64,000 nt of DNA from a phage. Both the position numbers and the translations under genes were made by a program. Position 1 is the first letter of the stretch; each line of letters opens with the position of its first letter. The stretch lies in the sequence record PZ445489.1; one strand, written 5' to 3'. Of the stretch, positions 1 through 48,210 are shown piece after piece. The notes under the pieces were generated by a model that had not been told where the DNA came from, did not search any database, and was given only the letters and a program-made list of their open reading frames with translations.

Positions 1-1317
1 ATGGAAGTATCAAGACCCTATGTTAATACAGTAGATGTTATTGATTTCGGAATAGATAAGCGTTTCTTTCGTTTACCCGTTTCCGGAATACTAGCACAAG
101 AGGGTATCACACCTAATGGCCCTCAAATAGCAATTATCAATGCCCTAGAAGACCCTAGACATCGTTTTGTAACGGCATGTGTATCACGCCGTGTAGGTAA
201 ATCTTTTATAGCGTATACACTTGGGTTCCTAAAATTGCTGGAACCTAATGTGAAGGTACTAGTAGTTGCCCCTAACTATTCACTAGCTAATATCGGATGG
301 TCTCAGATTCGTGGTCTTATTAAGAAGTACGGCCTACAAACCGAACGTGAAAACGCTAAAGATAAAGAGATTGAGTTAGCTAATGGTTCTCTATTTAAAC
401 TAGCTTCCGCGGCTCAGGCTGACTCCGCGGTTGGACGTTCATATGATTTTATCATCTTTGACGAGGCGGCAATTTCCGATGTGGGTGGTGATGCCTTCAG
501 GGTTCAGCTGCGTCCTACCCTAGATAAGCCTAATTCTAAGGCTCTATTTATTTCCACCCCTCGCGGAGGTAACTGGTTTAAAGAGTTTTACGCCTACGGA
601 TTCGATGATACGTTACCTAACTGGGTGTCTATTCATGGTACATATCGTGATAACCCACGTGCTGATTTGAATGACATTGAGGAGGCACGCCGTACGGTTA
701 GTAAAAACTACTTCCGCCAAGAATACGAAGCTGACTTCTCTGTATTCGAAGGACAGATATTTGATACCTTTAATGCTATCGATCATGTTAAAGATCTCAA
801 AGGTATGCGTCACTTCTTTAAAGATGATGAAGCATTCGAAACGTTGCTTGGTATTGACGTTGGTTATCGTGATCCTACAGCAGTTCTTACTATTAAATAT
901 CATTACGATACGGATACTTACTATGTATTAGAAGAGTACCAGCAGGCGGAGAAAACTACAGCTCAGCATGCTGCTTATATTCAGCACTGTATAGATCGTT
1001 ATAAAGTTGATCGTATTTTTGTTGACTCTGCAGCAGCTCAGTTCCGCCAGGACTTAGCTTATGAGCATGAAATTGCCTCAGCTCCAGCTAAAAAATCTGT
1101 CCTAGATGGCCTAGCATGCCTGCAAGCACTGTTCCAACAGGGCAAGATTATTGTAGATGCCTCATGTTCCTCCTTAATTCATGCATTGCAGAATTACAAG
1201 TGGGACTTCCAAGAAGGTGAAGAGAAATTATCACGTGAAAAACCACGTCATGATGCTAACTCTCACCTTTGTGATGCGCTCCGCTATGGAATTTATTCTA
1301 TTTCCCGTGGTAAATAA
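1..1317 (+). CDS. Terminase large subunit (ATPase + nuclease); ORF begins at window edge so true start may lie upstream
   Basis: 438 aa; Walker-B-like FIIFDEAA, N-terminal ATPase region then C-terminal acidic nuclease region; first gene of head module. Confidence 0.85.
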   Translation: MEVSRPYVNTVDVIDFGIDKRFFRLPVSGILAQEGITPNGPQIAIINALEDPRHRFVTACVSRRVGKSFIAYTLGFLKLLEPNVKVLVVAPNYSLANIGWSQIRGLIKKYGLQTERENAKDKEIELANGSLFKLASAAQADSAVGRSYDFIIFDEAAISDVGGDAFRVQLRPTLDKPNSKALFISTPRGGNWFKEFYAYGFDDTLPNWVSIHGTYRDNPRADLNDIEEARRTVSKNYFRQEYEADFSVFEGQIFDTFNAIDHVKDLKGMRHFFKDDEAFETLLGIDVGYRDPTAVLTIKYHYDTDTYYVLEEYQQAEKTTAQHAAYIQHCIDRYKVDRIFVDSAAAQFRQDLAYEHEIASAPAKKSVLDGLACLQALFQQGKIIVDASCSSLIHALQNYKWDFQEGEEKLSREKPRHDANSHLCDALRYGIYSISRGK

Positions 1318-1431
1318 ATAAGTATAGGATGGGATACTACTCAGTTGGTATCCCATTCCTGTATTTTAAAATCCCCTTTACAAATTCGATACGATTATGT
1401 ATACTATATTCATACAGTTGAGGAGAACACT

Positions 1432-1869
1432 ATGGCAAGCAATATAAAATATAAACGCGATGCTATATCCCTTATGAGAGACGGAATAAAAAGTCAATAT
1501 AAAAAAGACTCTCAATGTGCTATCTGCGGTTGTGCTGAAGAATTAGAGCTTCATCATTACCATACGGTGTCTCTACTAGTTAAAAAATTTGCTAAAGAAC
1601 TCCAATTGGATTTCACTGACGAAGAAACAGTCCTTTCAAATAGGACGGCATTCTATGATCGATATAGGCATGAGCTAGTAGAAGACACTGTTACCCTCTG
1701 TGTACACCATCACCAATTATTACATAAGGTTTACACAAAAGAACCTCCTTTATTTTCTGCTAATAAGCAAAAAGTGTGGGTTCAAAAGCAGAAAGACAAA
1801 TTACAGAATCCTCAAGAAAAGACACAAGTCAAGACTGAAACAAAATCAGGATTCGCAAGGTTCTTATAA
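1432..1869 (+). CDS. HNH-type endonuclease-like protein
   Basis: CAICGC...LHHYH...N...LCVHHHQLLH matches the C-x2-C/HH/N/C-x2-H HNH pattern; start moved to ATG 1432 with AGGAG 6 nt upstream (track start 1345). Confidence 0.55.
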   Translation: MASNIKYKRDAISLMRDGIKSQYKKDSQCAICGCAEELELHHYHTVSLLVKKFAKELQLDFTDEETVLSNRTAFYDRYRHELVEDTVTLCVHHHQLLHKVYTKEPPLFSANKQKVWVQKQKDKLQNPQEKTQVKTETKSGFARFL

Positions 1870-3086
1870 TGGGTTTTAAAAGCTGGATTACTGAAAAGCT
1901 AAATCCGGGTCAACGTATTATAAGAGACATGGAACCAGTTAGTCATCGCACTAACCGTAAGCCTTTTACCACTGGACAAGCCTACAGTAAAATTGAGATT
2001 CTCAATAGAACTGCTAATATGGTTATAGATAGTGCGGCGGAGTGTTCTTATACTGTCGGAGATAAATATAATATTGTTACGTACGCTAATGGCGTCAAAA
2101 CAAAGACTCTAGACACTCTCTTAAATGTACGACCTAATCCATTCATGGATATAAGCACATTCCGTAGACTTGTAGTCACTGACCTACTTTTTGAAGGTTG
2201 TGCATACATCTATTGGGATGGCACATCGCTTTACCATGTCCCGGCCGCTCTTATGCAGGTCGAGGCAGATGCCAATAAGTTTATCAAAAAATTTATATTT
2301 AATAATCAGATAAACTATCGCGTAGATGAGATTATCTTTATAAAGGATAACAGTTACGTGTGCGGCACAAATTCTCAAATTTCTGGACAATCTCGTGTTG
2401 CTACTGTTATTGATTCTCTTGAGAAGCGTTCCAAGATGCTTAACTTTAAAGAGAAATTCCTCGATAACGGAACCGTGATTGGTCTTATTCTTGAAACGGA
2501 TGAAATCCTGAACAAGAAATTGCGTGAGCGTAAACAAGAAGAATTACAACTCGATTATAATCCTAGTACTGGTCAGTCTTCTGTCCTGATTCTAGATGGT
2601 GGTATGAAAGCTAAACCGTACTCCCAAATATCCTCTTTTAAAGATCTAGACTTTAAGGAAGACATCGAAGGATTTAATAAATCTATTTGTCTAGCCTTTG
2701 GAGTTCCGCAAGTACTGCTTGATGGTGGTAATAATGCGAATATTCGACCAAACATCGAATTGTTCTATTATATGACTATCATTCCTATGCTGAACAAACT
2801 GACTAGTTCTCTTACTTTCTTTTTTGGTTATAAGATTACTCCTAATACTAAGGAGGTAGCTGCATTAACACCAGATAAAGAAGCTGAGGCTAAACATTTA
2901 ACCTCATTGGTTAATAATGGTATTATGACTGGTAACGAAGCTCGTTTAGAGCTGAACCTTGAACCTTTAGATGATGAGCAGATGGATAGGATTCGTATTC
3001 CTGCTAACGTTGCTGGTTCTGCAACAGGTGTATCTGGTCAAGAAGGTGGTAGACCTCAAGGTTCCACCGAGGGAGATAAAGAATGA
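1869..3086 (+). CDS. Portal protein
   Basis: 405 aa directly after terminase and before protease/capsid; size and position as in T5-like phages. Confidence 0.8.
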   Translation: MGFKSWITEKLNPGQRIIRDMEPVSHRTNRKPFTTGQAYSKIEILNRTANMVIDSAAECSYTVGDKYNIVTYANGVKTKTLDTLLNVRPNPFMDISTFRRLVVTDLLFEGCAYIYWDGTSLYHVPAALMQVEADANKFIKKFIFNNQINYRVDEIIFIKDNSYVCGTNSQISGQSRVATVIDSLEKRSKMLNFKEKFLDNGTVIGLILETDEILNKKLRERKQEELQLDYNPSTGQSSVLILDGGMKAKPYSQISSFKDLDFKEDIEGFNKSICLAFGVPQVLLDGGNNANIRPNIELFYYMTIIPMLNKLTSSLTFFFGYKITPNTKEVAALTPDKEAEAKHLTSLVNNGIMTGNEARLELNLEPLDDEQMDRIRIPANVAGSATGVSGQEGGRPQGSTEGDKE

Positions 3087-3577
3087 TTGATTATAATGGT
3101 CTAAAGACCATTTTTGGTGAAAAACTACCAGAATCTCATATCTTCTTTGCTACGGTTGCTGCGCATAAATATGTTCCTAGCTATGCTTTTCTGCGTAGAG
3201 AACTAGGGCTTTCATCTGCGCATACTAACCGTAAAGTATGGAAGAAATTTGTAGAGGCTTATGGTAAAGCAGTTCCTCCTGCTCCACCGGCCCCACCGTT
3301 AACTCTTTCTAAAGATTTAACTGCTAGCATGTCGGTTGAAGAGGGAGCAGCATTAACACTTTCTGTTACTGCAACTGGTGGTACTAGTCCATATACTTAT
3401 GCATGGACTAAAGATGGTTCTCCTATTCCGGAAGCTTCAGGAGCTACCTATACTAAGCCTGCAGCAGCTACGGAGGATTCTGGAGCCTATAAAGTAACTG
3501 TAACAGATAGTAAGCAAGTAAGTAAGGATTCTACTGCATGTGCTGTGACAGTTAATCCTACTGTTCCTGGAGGCTAA
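3083..3577 (+). CDS. Head decoration protein with C-terminal Ig-like domain (pb10-like)
   Basis: 164 aa; PPAPPAPP linker followed by Ig-like segment (YTYAWTKDGSPI...GAYKVTVTD); overlaps portal stop. Confidence 0.65.
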   Translation: MIDYNGLKTIFGEKLPESHIFFATVAAHKYVPSYAFLRRELGLSSAHTNRKVWKKFVEAYGKAVPPAPPAPPLTLSKDLTASMSVEEGAALTLSVTATGGTSPYTYAWTKDGSPIPEASGATYTKPAAATEDSGAYKVTVTDSKQVSKDSTACAVTVNPTVPGG

Positions 3578-4230: not shown

Positions 4231-5607
4231 ATGACTATTGATATTAATAAGCTGAAAGAAGAACTTGGTCTGGGTGATCTGGCTAAATCTCTGGAAGGTC
4301 TGACCGCTGCTCAGAAAGCTCAGGAAGCTGAACGTATGCGTAAAGAGCAGGAAGAAAAAGAACTGGCTCGTATGAATGACCTGGTTTCTAAAGCAGTTGG
4401 CGAAGATCGTAAGCGTCTGGAAGAGGCTCTGGATCTGGTTAAGTCTCTGGATGAGAAATCTAAGAAGAGCGCAGAACTGTTTGCACAAACTGTAGAAAAA
4501 CAACAGGAAACTATTGTTGGTCTTCAGGATGAAATTAAATCTCTGCTGACAGCTCGTGAAGGTCGTTCCTTCGTTGGTGATAGTGTTGCTAAAGCACTGT
4601 ACGGTACTCAGGAAAACTTTGAAGATGAAGTTGAAAAACTGGTTCTGTTATCTTATGTAATGGAAAAGGGCGTATTCGAGACCGAACACGGTCAAAAACA
4701 CCTGAAAGCAGTGAATCAGTCTTCTTCTGTAGAAGTTTCTAGTGAAAGCTATGAAACTATTTTCTCTCAGCGTATTATCCGTGACCTGCAGAAAGAGCTT
4801 GTAGTTGGCGCACTGTTCGAAGAACTGCCGATGTCCAGTAAGATTCTTACTATGCTGGTTGAACCGGATGCTGGTAAAGCTACTTGGGTTGCTGCTTCTA
4901 CTTATGGTACTGATGCAACTACTGGTGATGAAGTTAAAGGTGCTCTTAAAGAAATCCACTTCAGTACTTACAAACTGGCTGCTAAGTCCTTCATTACTGA
5001 TGAAACTGAAGAAGATGCAATCTTCTCCCTGCTGCCACTGCTTCGTAAGCGTCTGATCGAAGCACACGCTGTTTCTATTGAAGAAGCCTTCATGACTGGT
5101 GATGGTTCCGGTAAACCGAAAGGTCTGCTGACTCTTGCTAGTGAAGATAGTGCTAAAGTTATTACTGAAGCTAAAGCTGATGGTTCCGTACTGGTAACTG
5201 CTAAAACTATCTCTAAATTGCGTCGTAAACTGGGCCGTCATGGTCTGAAACTGAGCAAACTGGTACTGATTGTATCTATGGATGCTTACTATGATCTGCT
5301 GGAAGATGAAGAATGGCAGGATGTTGCCCAAGTTGGTAATGATGCTGTTAAACTGCAGGGTCAGGTTGGTCGTATTTATGGTCTGCCGGTTGTAGTTTCT
5401 GAGTACTTCCCAGCTAAAGCTACTTCCGCAGAGTTCGCAGTTATTGTTTATAAAGATAACTTCGTAATGCCACGCCAGCGTGCTGTTACTGTTGAACGTG
5501 AGCGCCAAGCTGGTAAACAGCGTGACGCATACTACGTTACTCAGCGTGTTAACCTGCAACGTTACTTTGCAAATGGCGTTGTATCTGGTGCTTACGCTGC
5601 ATCTTAA
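4231..5607 (+). CDS. Major capsid protein precursor with N-terminal scaffolding (delta) domain
   Basis: 458 aa; charged coiled-coil N-terminus then HK97-like body; host-optimal codon usage; terminator follows. Confidence 0.9.
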   Translation: MTIDINKLKEELGLGDLAKSLEGLTAAQKAQEAERMRKEQEEKELARMNDLVSKAVGEDRKRLEEALDLVKSLDEKSKKSAELFAQTVEKQQETIVGLQDEIKSLLTAREGRSFVGDSVAKALYGTQENFEDEVEKLVLLSYVMEKGVFETEHGQKHLKAVNQSSSVEVSSESYETIFSQRIIRDLQKELVVGALFEELPMSSKILTMLVEPDAGKATWVAASTYGTDATTGDEVKGALKEIHFSTYKLAAKSFITDETEEDAIFSLLPLLRKRLIEAHAVSIEEAFMTGDGSGKPKGLLTLASEDSAKVITEAKADGSVLVTAKTISKLRRKLGRHGLKLSKLVLIVSMDAYYDLLEDEEWQDVAQVGNDAVKLQGQVGRIYGLPVVVSEYFPAKATSAEFAVIVYKDNFVMPRQRAVTVERERQAGKQRDAYYVTQRVNLQRYFANGVVSGAYAAS

Positions 5608-5626
5608 TACAGGCTTTTCAGCCGAT

Positions 5627-5652
5627 AAGGAGAGCTTCGGCTCTCCTTTTTT
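5627..5652 (+). terminator. Rho-independent terminator after capsid gene
   Basis: AAGGAGAGC-TTCG-GCTCTCCTT hairpin followed by TTTTTT. Confidence 0.8.
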
Positions 5653-5666
5653 ATTGGGAAAAATAA

Positions 5667-6179
5667 ATGCAAATAATCACAGCTGAAGACTATAGATTAT
5701 ATGGTGGGTTAAAACGACCTGAACTAGAATCTGGAGTAGAGATGATGATTACTGCTGCCAATGCGCTGATTACTAGCCTTTTAGGTATGGATGATGCTGA
5801 TGCGGTAGACCAGTTAATCAATACAAAACCTACTCGTAAAAAATACTTCTTAAGTTCTCCCTCGGCTACTTCAGTAACCAAAATGACTATTAACGACAAG
5901 GAGATAGATCCAGAACAATATAAGTTGTATTCTGATGGGGTTATACTTCTTAAATTTAATCCCCCAGAAGGTTATATGGGTGTAGAATACACACAAGGTG
6001 GATTTAATCCAATACCTGAGGATCTCAAACTTGCAGCATGTATGCTAGTAGATCATTGGCATAAACAGGATTACCGTCAAGCTAAAACAATTGGCGGAGA
6101 AACAGTTACTTTTAATAATACTAAGTCTGGTATTCCAGAGCATATTCGTACTATTATTGAAGTTTACAGGAGAGTATAA
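5667..6179 (+). CDS. Putative head completion / connector protein
   Basis: 170 aa ORF immediately downstream of capsid gene in head-tail junction position; no recognisable catalytic motif. Confidence 0.45.
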   Translation: MQIITAEDYRLYGGLKRPELESGVEMMITAANALITSLLGMDDADAVDQLINTKPTRKKYFLSSPSATSVTKMTINDKEIDPEQYKLYSDGVILLKFNPPEGYMGVEYTQGGFNPIPEDLKLAACMLVDHWHKQDYRQAKTIGGETVTFNNTKSGIPEHIRTIIEVYRRV

Positions 6180-6946
6180 TGTCTCTTTCTGATTTAGCTA
6201 CACAAATTATTAAGGAGCAGCTAGATAATGTTGGGCGTTCCGAGAACAATAAGAATACTGTTGTATATTCTGTTGAAACAGGACTGAAAGATCCTACTAG
6301 AGATGGTACTGTTGCTCAGGTATCTTTTAAATTCTCAAAACCTATATCCCAAGATCTCCTTAATGTTAGGACCGCTTCTATTCTAAAAGCAGTTTCTTCT
6401 AGCTTAGATCTAACAGGAGATTTAGGTGCTCTAGAGAATTTAATACAAGCAACCGCTGGTAAAAAATCTGCTGTAGGTAAAAAACGTTCTACTGGTAGAG
6501 TTCAAGTAAACTTTGGGGATCCTAGAGACGTAGAAGATGGATATTCTGGTGCAGTAACAGGTGCTTCTGGTCGTTTTGTATCAAATAGTAATATGAAGGT
6601 TATTCTGGAGTTGGTTGCTAAAGAATACTTAATAAAGGATATGAAAAAAGCAGGAGCTCCACTTAAATTTAGAACAGGTCGTTTTGCAAACTCTCTAAAA
6701 GTTAAAGATGTTATGCTTAGAGATGCTGGAACTAGCAAAGGTGCTCCGGAATTAAACGTTACATATAATTATATGGTACGTCCATATTCAGTATTTAATC
6801 CTGCAGTATCTACATATCGAAGATTGTCACTACGACCCTACCCAGGTGCTAGAAACCCTCAAAGACTAATTGGAGAGGCGATAGCTAAAGCTGCAAGAGA
6901 CTTAATTCACTCCAGATACAAAATTAAGGTTAATCAAGGAACCTAA
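6179..6946 (+). CDS. Hypothetical structural protein (head-tail joining region)
   Basis: 255 aa ORF, translationally coupled to neighbours within the structural operon. Confidence 0.4.
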   Translation: MSLSDLATQIIKEQLDNVGRSENNKNTVVYSVETGLKDPTRDGTVAQVSFKFSKPISQDLLNVRTASILKAVSSSLDLTGDLGALENLIQATAGKKSAVGKKRSTGRVQVNFGDPRDVEDGYSGAVTGASGRFVSNSNMKVILELVAKEYLIKDMKKAGAPLKFRTGRFANSLKVKDVMLRDAGTSKGAPELNVTYNYMVRPYSVFNPAVSTYRRLSLRPYPGARNPQRLIGEAIAKAARDLIHSRYKIKVNQGT

Positions 6947-25273: not shown

Positions 25274-27112
25274 TTATTCTAAGTAGGAAAATCCTTCTGC
25301 ATCTTTTTTGACAGTAATCTTATGAGCTAGTGGATGCGTATGCCCATGAGAAACAATGATAGAATTTAGACTTTCTTCCTCATTTAATAGTTCAACGAGA
25401 GTATCAAGTCCTTTTGTATCAATAAAGCTAATTACTTCATCAAGGAATAGAAGATTAATATTAACTTTACTAATAGATGTTAACAGCATCCGAATAGCTA
25501 ACAGGGTTGCTAGATTAATTCGACTTTGCTGACCAGTAGAGCAGTTCTCCATACTGGTACGGTTTCCATCATTGAAGATTACTACTTGTAATTTTGTTTC
25601 ATCAAGTTCAAATCCAAGTGCGAATTTACCACCAGTCATAATAGAAAGGTATTTATTAATTAATTCTTCGAATACTTTCACACTATGCTCTAGTTTATAT
25701 CCTACTAGATTCTTCAATGCAGCAATCAGAATATCGAGATCAGCAACAGCTTCTGATACTTCATTTAATTTGGAAGTAATCTCAGACATTTCTGCTTCAG
25801 CTTTCTCAATCTGTTCTAGTTTCGCTTTATATTTCGCATTGGCTAATTCTACATTTGCATTATGCTCTTTGGCAATTGCAACCTTAGAGCGGCCATCAGC
25901 GATTTCCTGTTCTAATTGTCGGATTTGCACCTGTAGGATTTGCACATTGAGTTCTTCAAAAGAAGTATCACTCATTGAATTTTTGAACTCGTCTCTAGCT
26001 ACCACTGCTTTATCCAAAGCATCCTTTGCTCTAGTATATGCAACGTACTCAAGTTGTTCTTTCTTCAACTGTTCTAGCTTAGCTTCAAGAGATTGCTTCT
26101 CTTTGAACAGAGGATCATATTCTATTCTAGCCATATCCATTGCTTTTTGAGCAGCAGTTGTATCCAGATGAGTACCGCAAGTAGGGCATTCAGTATTTGA
26201 AGCCTCTTGCTTGAACTTCTGATAACGTTTCTTAACTTCGCCTGCACGTGAGGTCACAATCGTTAGGTCACGCGTAACACTTGAGATCTCTTCATTTTGG
26301 TCGGTGGGCGCAGGTAAATTTTTGAAAGGCTCGAAAGATTGTTCGGCAACTTGTACAGCTTTGTCCAAATTACGCAACTTAGTAATATTAGCCTCTTGAG
26401 ACTTGGCTAATACCGCCTTAATTTTCGATTCAGTAAGTTCTTGTGCTAATGGTTCTTCATCAAACTCCGGTACTTCTACAGGTTCCTGTAGAGTTCCTAG
26501 ATTATTCTTTCCATTAAGGATTTTCGTAATTACAGCCATTTGGCCCTGCAAATTATTTAAGGTATTTGCTATTTCTTTACGGTCAGCCTTAATAGTTTCT
26601 GACATTTCTTTATATTGTTCTTGATTGAACAAGTTAACAAGAAAAGCCTTACGTGTTGCATCTGTTGCTTTTAGAAAGTCTAGATTGGAACCCACTGATT
26701 GATAAATTAGTTTGGTGAATGTTTGGAAGTCACCACCCATAATCTCTTCAATCATCTTGTATGTTTGGGTTGCCGTGTGTCCACTAATATCTTCCCCATT
26801 TTTAATAAGAGTTACTTTAGCAGTTGACTTAACTACTTTATGTAGTTCATACTCATCTTCATCTTTCGAGAAATAAGCGTGCATATCATACTCTTTTTTC
26901 GGAGAAGACCAAGAGAACAGAGCATCTTTCTTAATACCGCGTGAGTTCTTATTATAAAAGAGTTCTTCAATAACAGTGGCGATGGTGGATTTTCCTAATC
27001 CATTGCCACCAATTAGTTGAGTAACTGGATTCTTATCGAAATGAATTACGATGTCCTTACCGTAAGACATAACGTTACTAAATTTTAGTGTCTTAATTGT
27101 AATCTTTGACAT
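25274..27112 (-). CDS. SbcC/Rad50-like ATPase (D13-like)
   Basis: Walker A GGNGLGKST, long coiled coils, central CPTCG zinc hook, C-terminal LLFLDEV Walker B; start placed at internal Met (track start 27187 overlaps sbcD-like gene). Confidence 0.8.
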   Translation of the reverse strand: MSKITIKTLKFSNVMSYGKDIVIHFDKNPVTQLIGGNGLGKSTIATVIEELFYNKNSRGIKKDALFSWSSPKKEYDMHAYFSKDEDEYELHKVVKSTAKVTLIKNGEDISGHTATQTYKMIEEIMGGDFQTFTKLIYQSVGSNLDFLKATDATRKAFLVNLFNQEQYKEMSETIKADRKEIANTLNNLQGQMAVITKILNGKNNLGTLQEPVEVPEFDEEPLAQELTESKIKAVLAKSQEANITKLRNLDKAVQVAEQSFEPFKNLPAPTDQNEEISSVTRDLTIVTSRAGEVKKRYQKFKQEASNTECPTCGTHLDTTAAQKAMDMARIEYDPLFKEKQSLEAKLEQLKKEQLEYVAYTRAKDALDKAVVARDEFKNSMSDTSFEELNVQILQVQIRQLEQEIADGRSKVAIAKEHNANVELANAKYKAKLEQIEKAEAEMSEITSKLNEVSEAVADLDILIAALKNLVGYKLEHSVKVFEELINKYLSIMTGGKFALGFELDETKLQVVIFNDGNRTSMENCSTGQQSRINLATLLAIRMLLTSISKVNINLLFLDEVISFIDTKGLDTLVELLNEEESLNSIIVSHGHTHPLAHKITVKKDAEGFSYLE

Positions 27113-28070
27113 ATTTCGCAGCTCTAGCCAAGATTCTATCAATGTCGCCTTGAGATAGCTTCTCGACTTCACGGAAGTAAAGTTCAAGTTCGCCTAACAT
27201 ATCAAGATCAACAAGATTTAACTTAGCGTCTTTAGTAACTCGATGGTTAATCTTCTTATCTAATAAATCAGAGTCTTTGATAGACTTTAACTGAACAACG
27301 TCACCAGTAACTTCATAGACTACACGATCATAATCACTAGGTTCCATCTCTTCACCAGCTCCGATTGTTTTACGAATCAGTTGTGGTAAATCACCGAGTT
27401 CAATCCATTCTACTTTTAATGTGTCGGTATCAACGATAAAGCAACCATTTGTACCTTTTGTGCGTTCTCTATGGAACGATGTAGTTAATGGAGACCCTGG
27501 GTAGAGGAGCCTAGTAGATCCGATAGTCTGGCTATTAGTATAAGAATGTAAATCGCCAGCAACTACAGTATCATAACAGTTGTACTTAGTTAGATCAATT
27601 TCTGGTTTTACATGCGGAGGGATTTCACCGCGAACATGCGTGAAACATAGTTTTGATTCAGATGGTTTCCACTTAGATTTATGGATTTCGTCATATGGAA
27701 CAATATCAAATTCAGGGGAACGATATGGTTTGGTAATTACTTCCCACTTACCACTCGTTACTTTATTAATAACTCCTGCATAATGATACAGACATGAAAT
27801 GGTTTTCGTTAACATTTCATGATTTCCAGTAAAGATTTTGCCTGGATGGTCAAGTCTTGACATGAACTGTTCAAGCAGTTCTATTTCTTCTGACGACGGG
27901 TCGGCAACATCAAGTATATCACCGCCAGCAATATGAAGATCGCAGTTATGATTATGGAATATATCATTTAACCGTTCTCCTAGCATCAGGAAGCGACGCT
28001 TCTGCCATTCCTTTGGAACTTTATCTTGTCCTAGTTTGATATGATGATCAGCACTAAATAATATTCTCAT
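27093..28070 (-). CDS. SbcD/Mre11-like metallophosphoesterase nuclease (D12-like)
   Basis: 325 aa; SADHH, GGDILD, GNHE metallophosphatase motifs. Confidence 0.85.
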   Translation of the reverse strand: MRILFSADHHIKLGQDKVPKEWQKRRFLMLGERLNDIFHNHNCDLHIAGGDILDVADPSSEEIELLEQFMSRLDHPGKIFTGNHEMLTKTISCLYHYAGVINKVTSGKWEVITKPYRSPEFDIVPYDEIHKSKWKPSESKLCFTHVRGEIPPHVKPEIDLTKYNCYDTVVAGDLHSYTNSQTIGSTRLLYPGSPLTTSFHRERTKGTNGCFIVDTDTLKVEWIELGDLPQLIRKTIGAGEEMEPSDYDRVVYEVTGDVVQLKSIKDSDLLDKKINHRVTKDAKLNLVDLDMLGELELYFREVEKLSQGDIDRILARAAKYVKDYN

Positions 28071-47012: not shown

Positions 47013-47181
47013 TTTTGTTCCTTTCTAAGAACGTATCATACTCAACCGTATTCACATATATAACACCATAGTCATCGGATTTATAGTCCATTTCCCACAA
47101 CTCACAGCGATAGTACCAACTACCGTCCGCCCATACAAATATATCATCAGGGTGTGTATACACAGATTTAATTATGGACAT
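46999..47181 (-). CDS. Hypothetical small protein
   Basis: 60 aa ORF with overlapping start/stop coupling inside the operon. Confidence 0.35.
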   Translation of the reverse strand: MSIIKSVYTHPDDIFVWADGSWYYRCELWEMDYKSDDYGVIYVNTVEYDTFLERNKNGNK

Positions 47182-47996
47182 ATTTGTTTCCCTGGCATAT
47201 AAGGTCTACCCTCTAGATGAGCTTCTACACGAGCAATAAAATCAGGGTCACTAAAAGCATCTACCGCACCTTTACTCCAGTAAGGAATACCACGATCTTC
47301 CAACTGGTACATCTCACTACGAGTCATACCTTGATAGCCCGGTTCTGCCGCTAGGGCACTATCGTAGTAGTTAACTACCATTAATTTGGCAGCAGTCAAA
47401 TTAAGAACAGGAAATAATTCCCAGTAGAAGTTAATTACTTGGTTAGAACAACCAACCACAATGATCATATCTTGACTGGTAATATCATCAAAAACATTGT
47501 ACATTTCTGTATATGCTGGAGCATGCTCACCAAAGAAGATTACATTAGGTTTAACCCATTTATAATCATCTGGGTCAATAGAGCTATACCCAACATCAAT
47601 AATTCGTTTATTACTACTATTGTAGCTGTCAGCTACAACAACCTCTTTTAAATATCCGTGAATGTGCAGAATGTCACTATGTGGAACGCCAGCACGTTCA
47701 ATAAGGTCATCAACATTGGTAGTCAAGTTTACTACTTGACCTGGATATTGTTTATACCATTCACCAATACGCAAATGTGCAAGATTGGGTTCAACAGTTT
47801 TTAGCTCTTCACGACGCTTGTTGTAAAACATATGGGTTTTATGATAAAAATTACCACGAAAGGCATGAATATTACATACTTCTTCTAGATTATAATCATC
47901 CCACAATGCTTTACCACTAGCAGTATCAGTACGAAAAGCTCGTACACCACTTTCAACACTCAAACCCGCACCGCTAATAATAATTAATCTACGCAT
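47172..47996 (-). CDS. Sir2 (sirtuin)-family NAD-utilising protein lacking zinc-ribbon cysteines
   Basis: 274 aa; GAGLSVESGVRAFR, LTTNVDDLIERAG, catalytic-type HG, VIFFGE and IVVGCS motifs; no CxxC pairs. Confidence 0.65.
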   Translation of the reverse strand: MRRLIIISGAGLSVESGVRAFRTDTASGKALWDDYNLEEVCNIHAFRGNFYHKTHMFYNKRREELKTVEPNLAHLRIGEWYKQYPGQVVNLTTNVDDLIERAGVPHSDILHIHGYLKEVVVADSYNSSNKRIIDVGYSSIDPDDYKWVKPNVIFFGEHAPAYTEMYNVFDDITSQDMIIVVGCSNQVINFYWELFPVLNLTAAKLMVVNYYDSALAAEPGYQGMTRSEMYQLEDRGIPYWSKGAVDAFSDPDFIARVEAHLEGRPYMPGKQICP

Positions 47997-48210
47997 TTTT
48001 CACCTGTTCTCTGAAGTTTTGCCCAATACTGTCTAATAGCTCAGCTAATTCTTTATTGCCTTTCTCCATTAAGGTGTTAGCAATAACTTCTAGCATAGTA
48101 GCGCAGGATTCAACCCCATCCTTATAGCCAGTTTCCCAGTGCTGCATTAATGCGTTTTCCAAAGCGGCGTTTAAACCCTTATCTGGTAGCATCGGCTTCG
48201 AGAATGCCAT
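47989..48210 (-). CDS. Hypothetical small protein
   Basis: 73 aa ORF, translationally coupled. Confidence 0.4.
   Translation of the reverse strand: MAFSKPMLPDKGLNAALENALMQHWETGYKDGVESCATMLEVIANTLMEKGNKELAELLDSIGQNFREQVKNA

Follow-up and report, generated by a model that had tools for sequence, protein, structure and literature searches.

A T5-type SciA nicking endonuclease gene flanked by terminase and portal in a Tequintavirus

The open reading frame (ORF) between the large terminase and portal genes in a 64,000-nucleotide stretch of phage DNA (record PZ445489.1; 'the window' denotes this whole stretch) encodes, with a probability that we put at roughly 90%, SciA, the nickase of T5-like phages that cuts one strand at GCGC sites. 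The gene is already known, having been named, annotated and structurally solved. The description of SciA as a nickase recognizing GCGC rests on Protein Data Bank (PDB) titles, on UniRef and GenBank names and on the summary of older genetics in a 2012 paper; we infer that the allele described here has the same targets in its own genome. The product would be a late-expressed, zinc-containing endonuclease of the HNH type (ββα-metal), as in other T5-like phages. The features discussed are collected in Table 1.

By sequence, the window originates from a Tequintavirus (T5-like phage), and its orientation is the reverse of the conventional T5 map. Over bases 1–3100, identity is 99.8% to Escherichia phage vB_EcoD-Elw, 97% to Bf23 and 97–98% to many other Tequintavirus genomes; used as a query, these bases matched 451 phage records, with a query coverage of at least 80% in 433. 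Pfam matches of the two neighbouring products (Terminase_6N/6C and Phage_portal) bear out the place that the original prediction had given the ORF, between the large terminase and portal genes. Directly after the portal gene lies a 164-aa ORF (window 3083–3577, + strand) for an Ig-like decoration protein, whose labels differ among near-identical genomes ('tail fibers protein', 'tail protein', 'Hoc-like head decoration', 'decoration protein'). In one 46-kb Epseptimavirus record, Salmonella phage MET_P1-197_46 (PV804859; 3399–3896), the sciA, portal and capsid genes are in pieces, probably through frameshift errors of assembly and not as real pseudogenes.

Two PDB entries, 9QGV and 9QGX ('Nicking endonuclease'), match the ORF product from end to end, their residues 4–148 aligning to its residues 1–145 (phmmer, E = 5.5e-80). 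Their titles read 'SciA(H42Q)/(H42A) endonuclease from Escherichia phage T5 in complex with 10 bp DNA (GCGC sequence 2/1)'; both were released on 2026-03-25, and their sequences depart from wild type solely at His42, replaced by Gln or Ala. Global identity to T5.153 is 83.4% (145 aa each), and the product matches phrog_3497 with E = 1.3e-69. Elw, Bf23, Gostya9 and many further records label this gene 'nicking (site-specific) endonuclease', and the Gostya9 record names it sciA; in the original T5 records, RefSeq T5 included, it is T5.153 or ORF142, a 'hypothetical protein'. Its UniRef cluster is named 'Nicking endonuclease', and a precomputed Pfam accession, PF26848, is attached to all 114 homologues. 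Our own Pfam scan, run on a copy of the database without PF26848, returned nothing for the product at E ≤ 1, and an NCBIfam scan returned no family.

Structure comparison agrees with the sequence match. An AlphaFold2 model of the product (36 homologues in the alignment, pLDDT 87.2) matches 9QGV and 9QGX in FoldSeek searches with E = 5e-16, a target TM score of 0.95 and an RMSD of 0.8–0.9 Å, as a predicted model set against experimental ones. Besides SciA, FoldSeek found no significant neighbour in the PDB, the HNH effector Cap5 appearing at E > 1. T5 SciA (T5.153/ORF142) is like the window protein in length, fold and invariant Cys/His set, H42 included, and like it in its position between TerL and portal; comparison of gene content with T5, a check proposed with the original prediction, places T5.153 in the same slot. 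The papers found on a T5 'nickase' deal with Gp015, a pre-early protein that depends on Ung and is distinct from SciA.

The gene comprises 438 bp (145 aa), from an ATG at 1432 to a TAA at 1867–1869 that overlaps the portal ATG (1869) by one base (TAATG); translation of sciA would be coupled to that of the portal gene. The construct used to crystallize T5 SciA consists of three extra residues followed by MATN..., and so begins at the Met equivalent to ATG 1432. A longer ORF of 174 aa, starting from TTG 1345, was rejected as the gene because the added stretch contains the terminator-like hairpin and the promoter-like site; relatives annotate the ATG start, which further rules out the TTG. The 114-bp spacer that separates terminase and sciA (1318–1431) holds this hairpin and promoter-like site in the place that T5 gives to another gene, T5.154, and the Bf23 record annotates a promoter at the same position with the remark 'absent in T5 phage'. 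Transcription of sciA would proceed with the packaging and head genes and apparently also from its own promoter-like site.

Table 1. Coordinates of sciA, its neighbours and its predicted target sites in the window.
Feature	Position	Strand	Basis
Terminase large subunit	1..1317	+	Pfam Terminase_6N/6C, E 9e-15 and 3e-11; 100% aa identity to T5.155
Terminator-like hairpin, 13-bp stem, 3' of terminase gene	1327..1358	+	stretch kept in nearly all T5-like records
Promoter-like TTTACA-17-TATACT, 5' of sciA	1377..1405	+	10/12 consensus matches; consensus match only
Ribosome-binding site GAGGAG, 6 nt 5' of sciA ATG	1420..1425	+	read from sequence
sciA, 145-aa site-specific nicking endonuclease, T5.153 / T5 SciA ortholog	1432..1869	+	homology, annotation, fold
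Catalytic/zinc core, codons C29 to H98	1516..1725	+	invariant residues; AlphaFold2 secondary structure; H42 mutated in crystals
Variable, predicted-disordered C-terminal tail, residues 126–145, ending G-F-A-R-F-L	1807..1866	+	pLDDT, homologue comparison
Portal protein	1869..3086	+	Pfam Phage_portal, E 1e-50; 98.3% aa identity to T5.152
Predicted SciA nick site G/GCGCAGG, nick 26307/26308	26307..26314	+	ortholog of T5 major interruption 78573/78574
Second full consensus match A/GCGCAGG, candidate nick site	48100..48107	+	pattern match

The original prediction had taken a pattern of Cys and His residues as the sign of an HNH nuclease. The pattern is real (C29-x2-C32, H41-H42, C90-x2-H93-H94, H98), and seven of its residues (C29, C32, H41, H42, C90, H94 and H98) are invariant across 36 aligned homologues, down to 41% identity; H93 is near-invariant, with Asp in three of the 36. 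C29-x2-C32 and C90-x2-H93 form a putative structural zinc site of the CxxC...CxxC type. In the AlphaFold2 model, one strand (38–42) ends in H42, a helical stretch spans residues 46–84, a second strand (86–90) ends in C90, and the following helix (91–101) carries H94 and H98. The modelled core is a ββα-metal unit, its strands split by an unusual helical insert of ~43 residues (46–84). H42 is the residue substituted in both T5 SciA crystal structures (H42Q and H42A).

Remote-homology searches hint at recognized HNH proteins. The protein matches the PHROG HNH family 8048 over residues 24–99 (E = 6e-6) and family 4234 at E = 0.005; in BFVD, most of the structural neighbours beyond its own family belong to the HNH, HNHc or NinG types, as weak matches with E from 6e-3 upward. 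An HNH profile search, which had been proposed as the check, formally fails with Pfam (none at E ≤ 1) and NCBIfam (none); when all 36 homologues were compared with Pfam, HNH-type matches were sub-threshold only and arose in 11, namely AI2M-like_HNH in eight (best 0.051), HNH in two (0.027) and HNHc_6 in one (0.012). The long helical insert is the likely reason that these profiles miss SciA. The assignment as an HNH-type nuclease is nevertheless upheld by the DNA-bound crystals of the T5 ortholog and the ββα core, and the PHROG HNH match and the structural neighbours point the same way: SciA is an HNH / His-Me-finger nuclease too divergent for the Pfam HNH models.

The lack of a Pfam HNH match could also be read as the mark of a zinc-binding but non-catalytic protein for DNA binding or assembly, one that has kept an HNH-like scaffold and lost nuclease activity. 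The Asn of the H-N-H motif indeed has no invariant counterpart, N70 being Met, Ile, Leu, Tyr or His in relatives (often one of the first three) next to an invariant R71. Set against this, the depositors call the T5 protein an endonuclease, H42Q or H42A was needed to crystallize it on DNA, and H42, H94 and H98 are invariant, which leaves loss of activity with next to no credence. For SciA as a nuclease, H42 would act as the catalytic base.

Virion DNA of both T5 and BF23 contains fixed nicks in one strand (PMC10644984). Over 1401–1700 the window sciA allele has 99–100% DNA identity to that of BF23; this near-identity to the allele of a phage whose DNA is nicked argues for an active protein here. 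The 24 of 145 residues by which it differs from the crystallized T5 protein may have shifted its specificity. Nicking is controlled by two loci, sciA and sciB, which map to the late region, and the four major nicks of T5 conform to 5'-R/GCGCRGG-3' (PMC3517423). Annotation of the T5 record assigns the major nicks to the minus strand; on that strand, three of the four sites have the sequence A/GCGCAGGG and the fourth has G/GCGCGGGC.

This fourth T5 site, inside gene D13, has its counterpart in the window inside a D13-like ORF (25274–27187, − strand), with a 600-bp context 96.8% identical to that of T5. The window + strand at this nick corresponds to the nicked (minus) strand of T5. Conservation of the D13 site on the expected strand therefore means that enzyme and substrate are both present in the genome. 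The second match to the full consensus is situated ~100 bp upstream of a minus-strand ORF (47172–47996). We rejected the number of consensus matches as evidence: the two in the whole window (RGCGCRGG, both on the + strand and none on the −) equal the chance mean of 1.98, and the D13 orthology alone is informative. Among the 16 palindromic tetranucleotides, GCGC shows the strongest depletion across the window: it occurs 41 times where trinucleotide composition predicts 61.8 (ratio 0.66). SciA would bind duplex DNA at GCGC-core sites of the consensus above and cut one strand only, just 5' of the GCGC; the product would be fixed single-strand interruptions in one strand of the virion DNA, as in T5 and BF23, here the + strand of the window.

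Strand-specific nicks at a fixed consensus also occur in the virion DNA of Pseudomonas phages (phiKMV-like; tf / LUZ24-like), where, as in T5, they reappear at a late stage of infection (PMC3517423). Their consensus sequences, CGACN5CCTA/CTCCGG and TACT/RTGMC, are unlike that of SciA, and a tblastn search for sciA (E ≤ 1e-3) found no Pseudomonas phage among the organisms and hosts listed.

Small zinc HNH enzymes encoded near packaging genes are found in other phages, and SciA resembles them in these traits (N.phiGamma, the GVE2 HNH protein, PDB 5H0O, and the HK97 gp74 group). Terminase-adjacent HNH enzymes of this kind are common, nick one strand at short sites of 3–7 bp and have a proposed role in packaging (PMC3592412; PMC5714182). 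Were SciA a terminase accessory of the HK97 gp74 or phage gamma type, it would cut concatemers together with the terminase, and packaging would depend on it. The gene does sit within the packaging module with its stop overlapping the portal start, and its predicted-disordered tail carries a conserved peptide at the C terminus that could serve for docking. The ORF upstream of TerL in one T5 record (AY587007, 4517–4999) is labelled 'SciB protein', and is the small terminase subunit in other records; sciB, the other locus that controls nicking, may thus correspond to the gene for that subunit, and the label ties the genetics of nicking to the terminase.

Position, substrate and profile separate SciA from that group. 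The gp74-type genes stand upstream of TerS beside cos, whereas sciA has TerL on one side and portal on the other, in a phage whose genome is terminally redundant (long terminal repeats), with TerS upstream of TerL and neither the small terminase gene nor a cos end directly beside it. N.phiGamma, GVE2 HNH and the HK97 gp74 group match the Pfam HNH models that define them; SciA gives no significant match and differs in carrying its helical insertion of ~43 residues between the core strands. The DNA in the crystals carries GCGC, the sequence of the internal nicks and not that of a genome end, and the known product of SciA, unlike theirs, is internal nicks in packaged DNA. T5 mutants without nicks are viable according to Rogers (1979), as cited in PMC3517423. 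We regard a terminase accessory as highly unlikely. The assistance to packaging suggested in the original prediction, by analogy with HNH proteins of siphophages, thus goes unsupported on account of the different position, the internal-nick substrate and the reported viability of nick-less mutants.

A looser link between SciA and packaging is possible, in view of the 'SciB' label and of the embedding in, and translational coupling to, the packaging and head module. In the C-terminal tail, residues 134–145 have pLDDT below 50 in our model, and the T5 SciA crystals, in which 119–121 of 148 residues are modelled, leave the tail out. After a variable linker, a hydrophobic-x-x-aromatic motif recurs at the C terminus of 104 of 114 homologues, duplicated in some; it takes the form GFARFL in the window and L-x-x-F-K/M-V in many Vibrio phages. 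This peptide may be a docking motif; its role could equally be in folding, dimerization or DNA binding. As a speculative proposal, which we hold to be doubtful, SciA could be coupled to the packaging motor via the C-terminal G-F-x-R/K-F-L peptide and nick the DNA while it is threaded into the head; which strand is cut would then depend on the direction of translocation as well as on the sequence beside the palindromic GCGC core. Such coupling, if true, would explain why consensus sites on the opposite strand of T5 remain un-nicked (PMC3517423), why a T5 record puts the sciB label on the small terminase gene and why sciA is locked, with translational coupling, between TerL and portal.

The alternative that the original prediction had itself raised was a homing endonuclease, here a free-standing HNH gene inserted selfishly between terminase and portal. 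SciA is a small HNH-type nuclease, T5 itself has many HNH homing genes, and the locus is a recombination hot-spot with a mosaic boundary inside sciA. The HNH homing endonucleases of T5 (F-TflI, II, IV and others) and I-HmuI share the His-Me-finger core with SciA (group listed in PMC5714182). I-HmuI likewise nicks one strand. Homing enzymes are sporadic and have extra DNA-binding modules, whereas sciA is a fixed, syntenic core gene of the family Demerecviridae, not a sporadic mobile one. By tblastn it is present in 900 phage records, and the TerL–sciA–portal block was matched in 433 of the 451 related records. The order TerS–TerL–SciA–portal is met in the relatives of the window (Elw, Bf23, Gostya9, T5) and also in Vibrio phage Ceto (Ermolyevavirinae), the one distant context examined, whose homologue has 47% identity. 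Near-universal presence, a slot fixed out to Vibrio phages and purifying selection contradict homing, and we give this reading hardly any chance. It is the neighbouring gene, T5.154, that is sporadic here.

In T5, unlike the window, the T5.154 gene lies between TerL and sciA and overlaps the sciA start. Its product combines T5orf172/MUG113, CapR and treble-clef zinc-finger domains. T5, Gostya9 and 8sent1748 all have an insertion directly upstream of sciA, after window positions 1413–1424, that is T5.154 or a remnant of it (in T5, the 5485–6607 region). In 74 of 442 T5-like records, T5.154 is accompanied by a T5-type 5' end of sciA; nearly all others sampled match the 85-bp conserved spacer only (query bases 1–85, about window 1329–1413). 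The allele of the window lacks the insertion, as does that of BF23, and T5.154 is absent.

The divergence of SciA from T5 follows this boundary. Protein identity to T5 is 100% for TerL and 98.3% for portal against 83.4% for SciA, and 22 of the 24 differences in SciA fall within residues 3–91. DNA identity to T5, Gostya9 and 8sent1748 is 70–74% over 1401–1700, which takes in the first two-thirds of sciA, compared with 90–100% in the flanks. Synonymous divergence from T5 is saturated in codons 1–95 (pS 0.74), against 0.17 in codons 96–145 and 0.25 in TerL, and the dN/dS of codons 1–95 is 0.06. We rejected faster evolution as the cause of the low identity to T5 on these values; saturated synonymous sites together with low dN/dS mark codons 1–95 as an old, exchanged segment. 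T5.154 looks like a mobile nuclease gene moving together with part of the adjacent sciA, a part that has diverged and may resist cleavage; the pattern points to intron-less homing in which sciA is the neighbour or the target.

As a discovery the identification carries little weight, since many T5-like genomes already annotate the gene as a nicking endonuclease; its value is in correct annotation, as many records, RefSeq T5 among them, still say 'hypothetical protein'. The purpose of the T5 nicks has been a question for about 60 years (PMC3517423). The C-terminal peptide, the mosaic boundary linked to mobile T5.154 and the GCGC depletion do not explain it, but offer concrete handles for its study.
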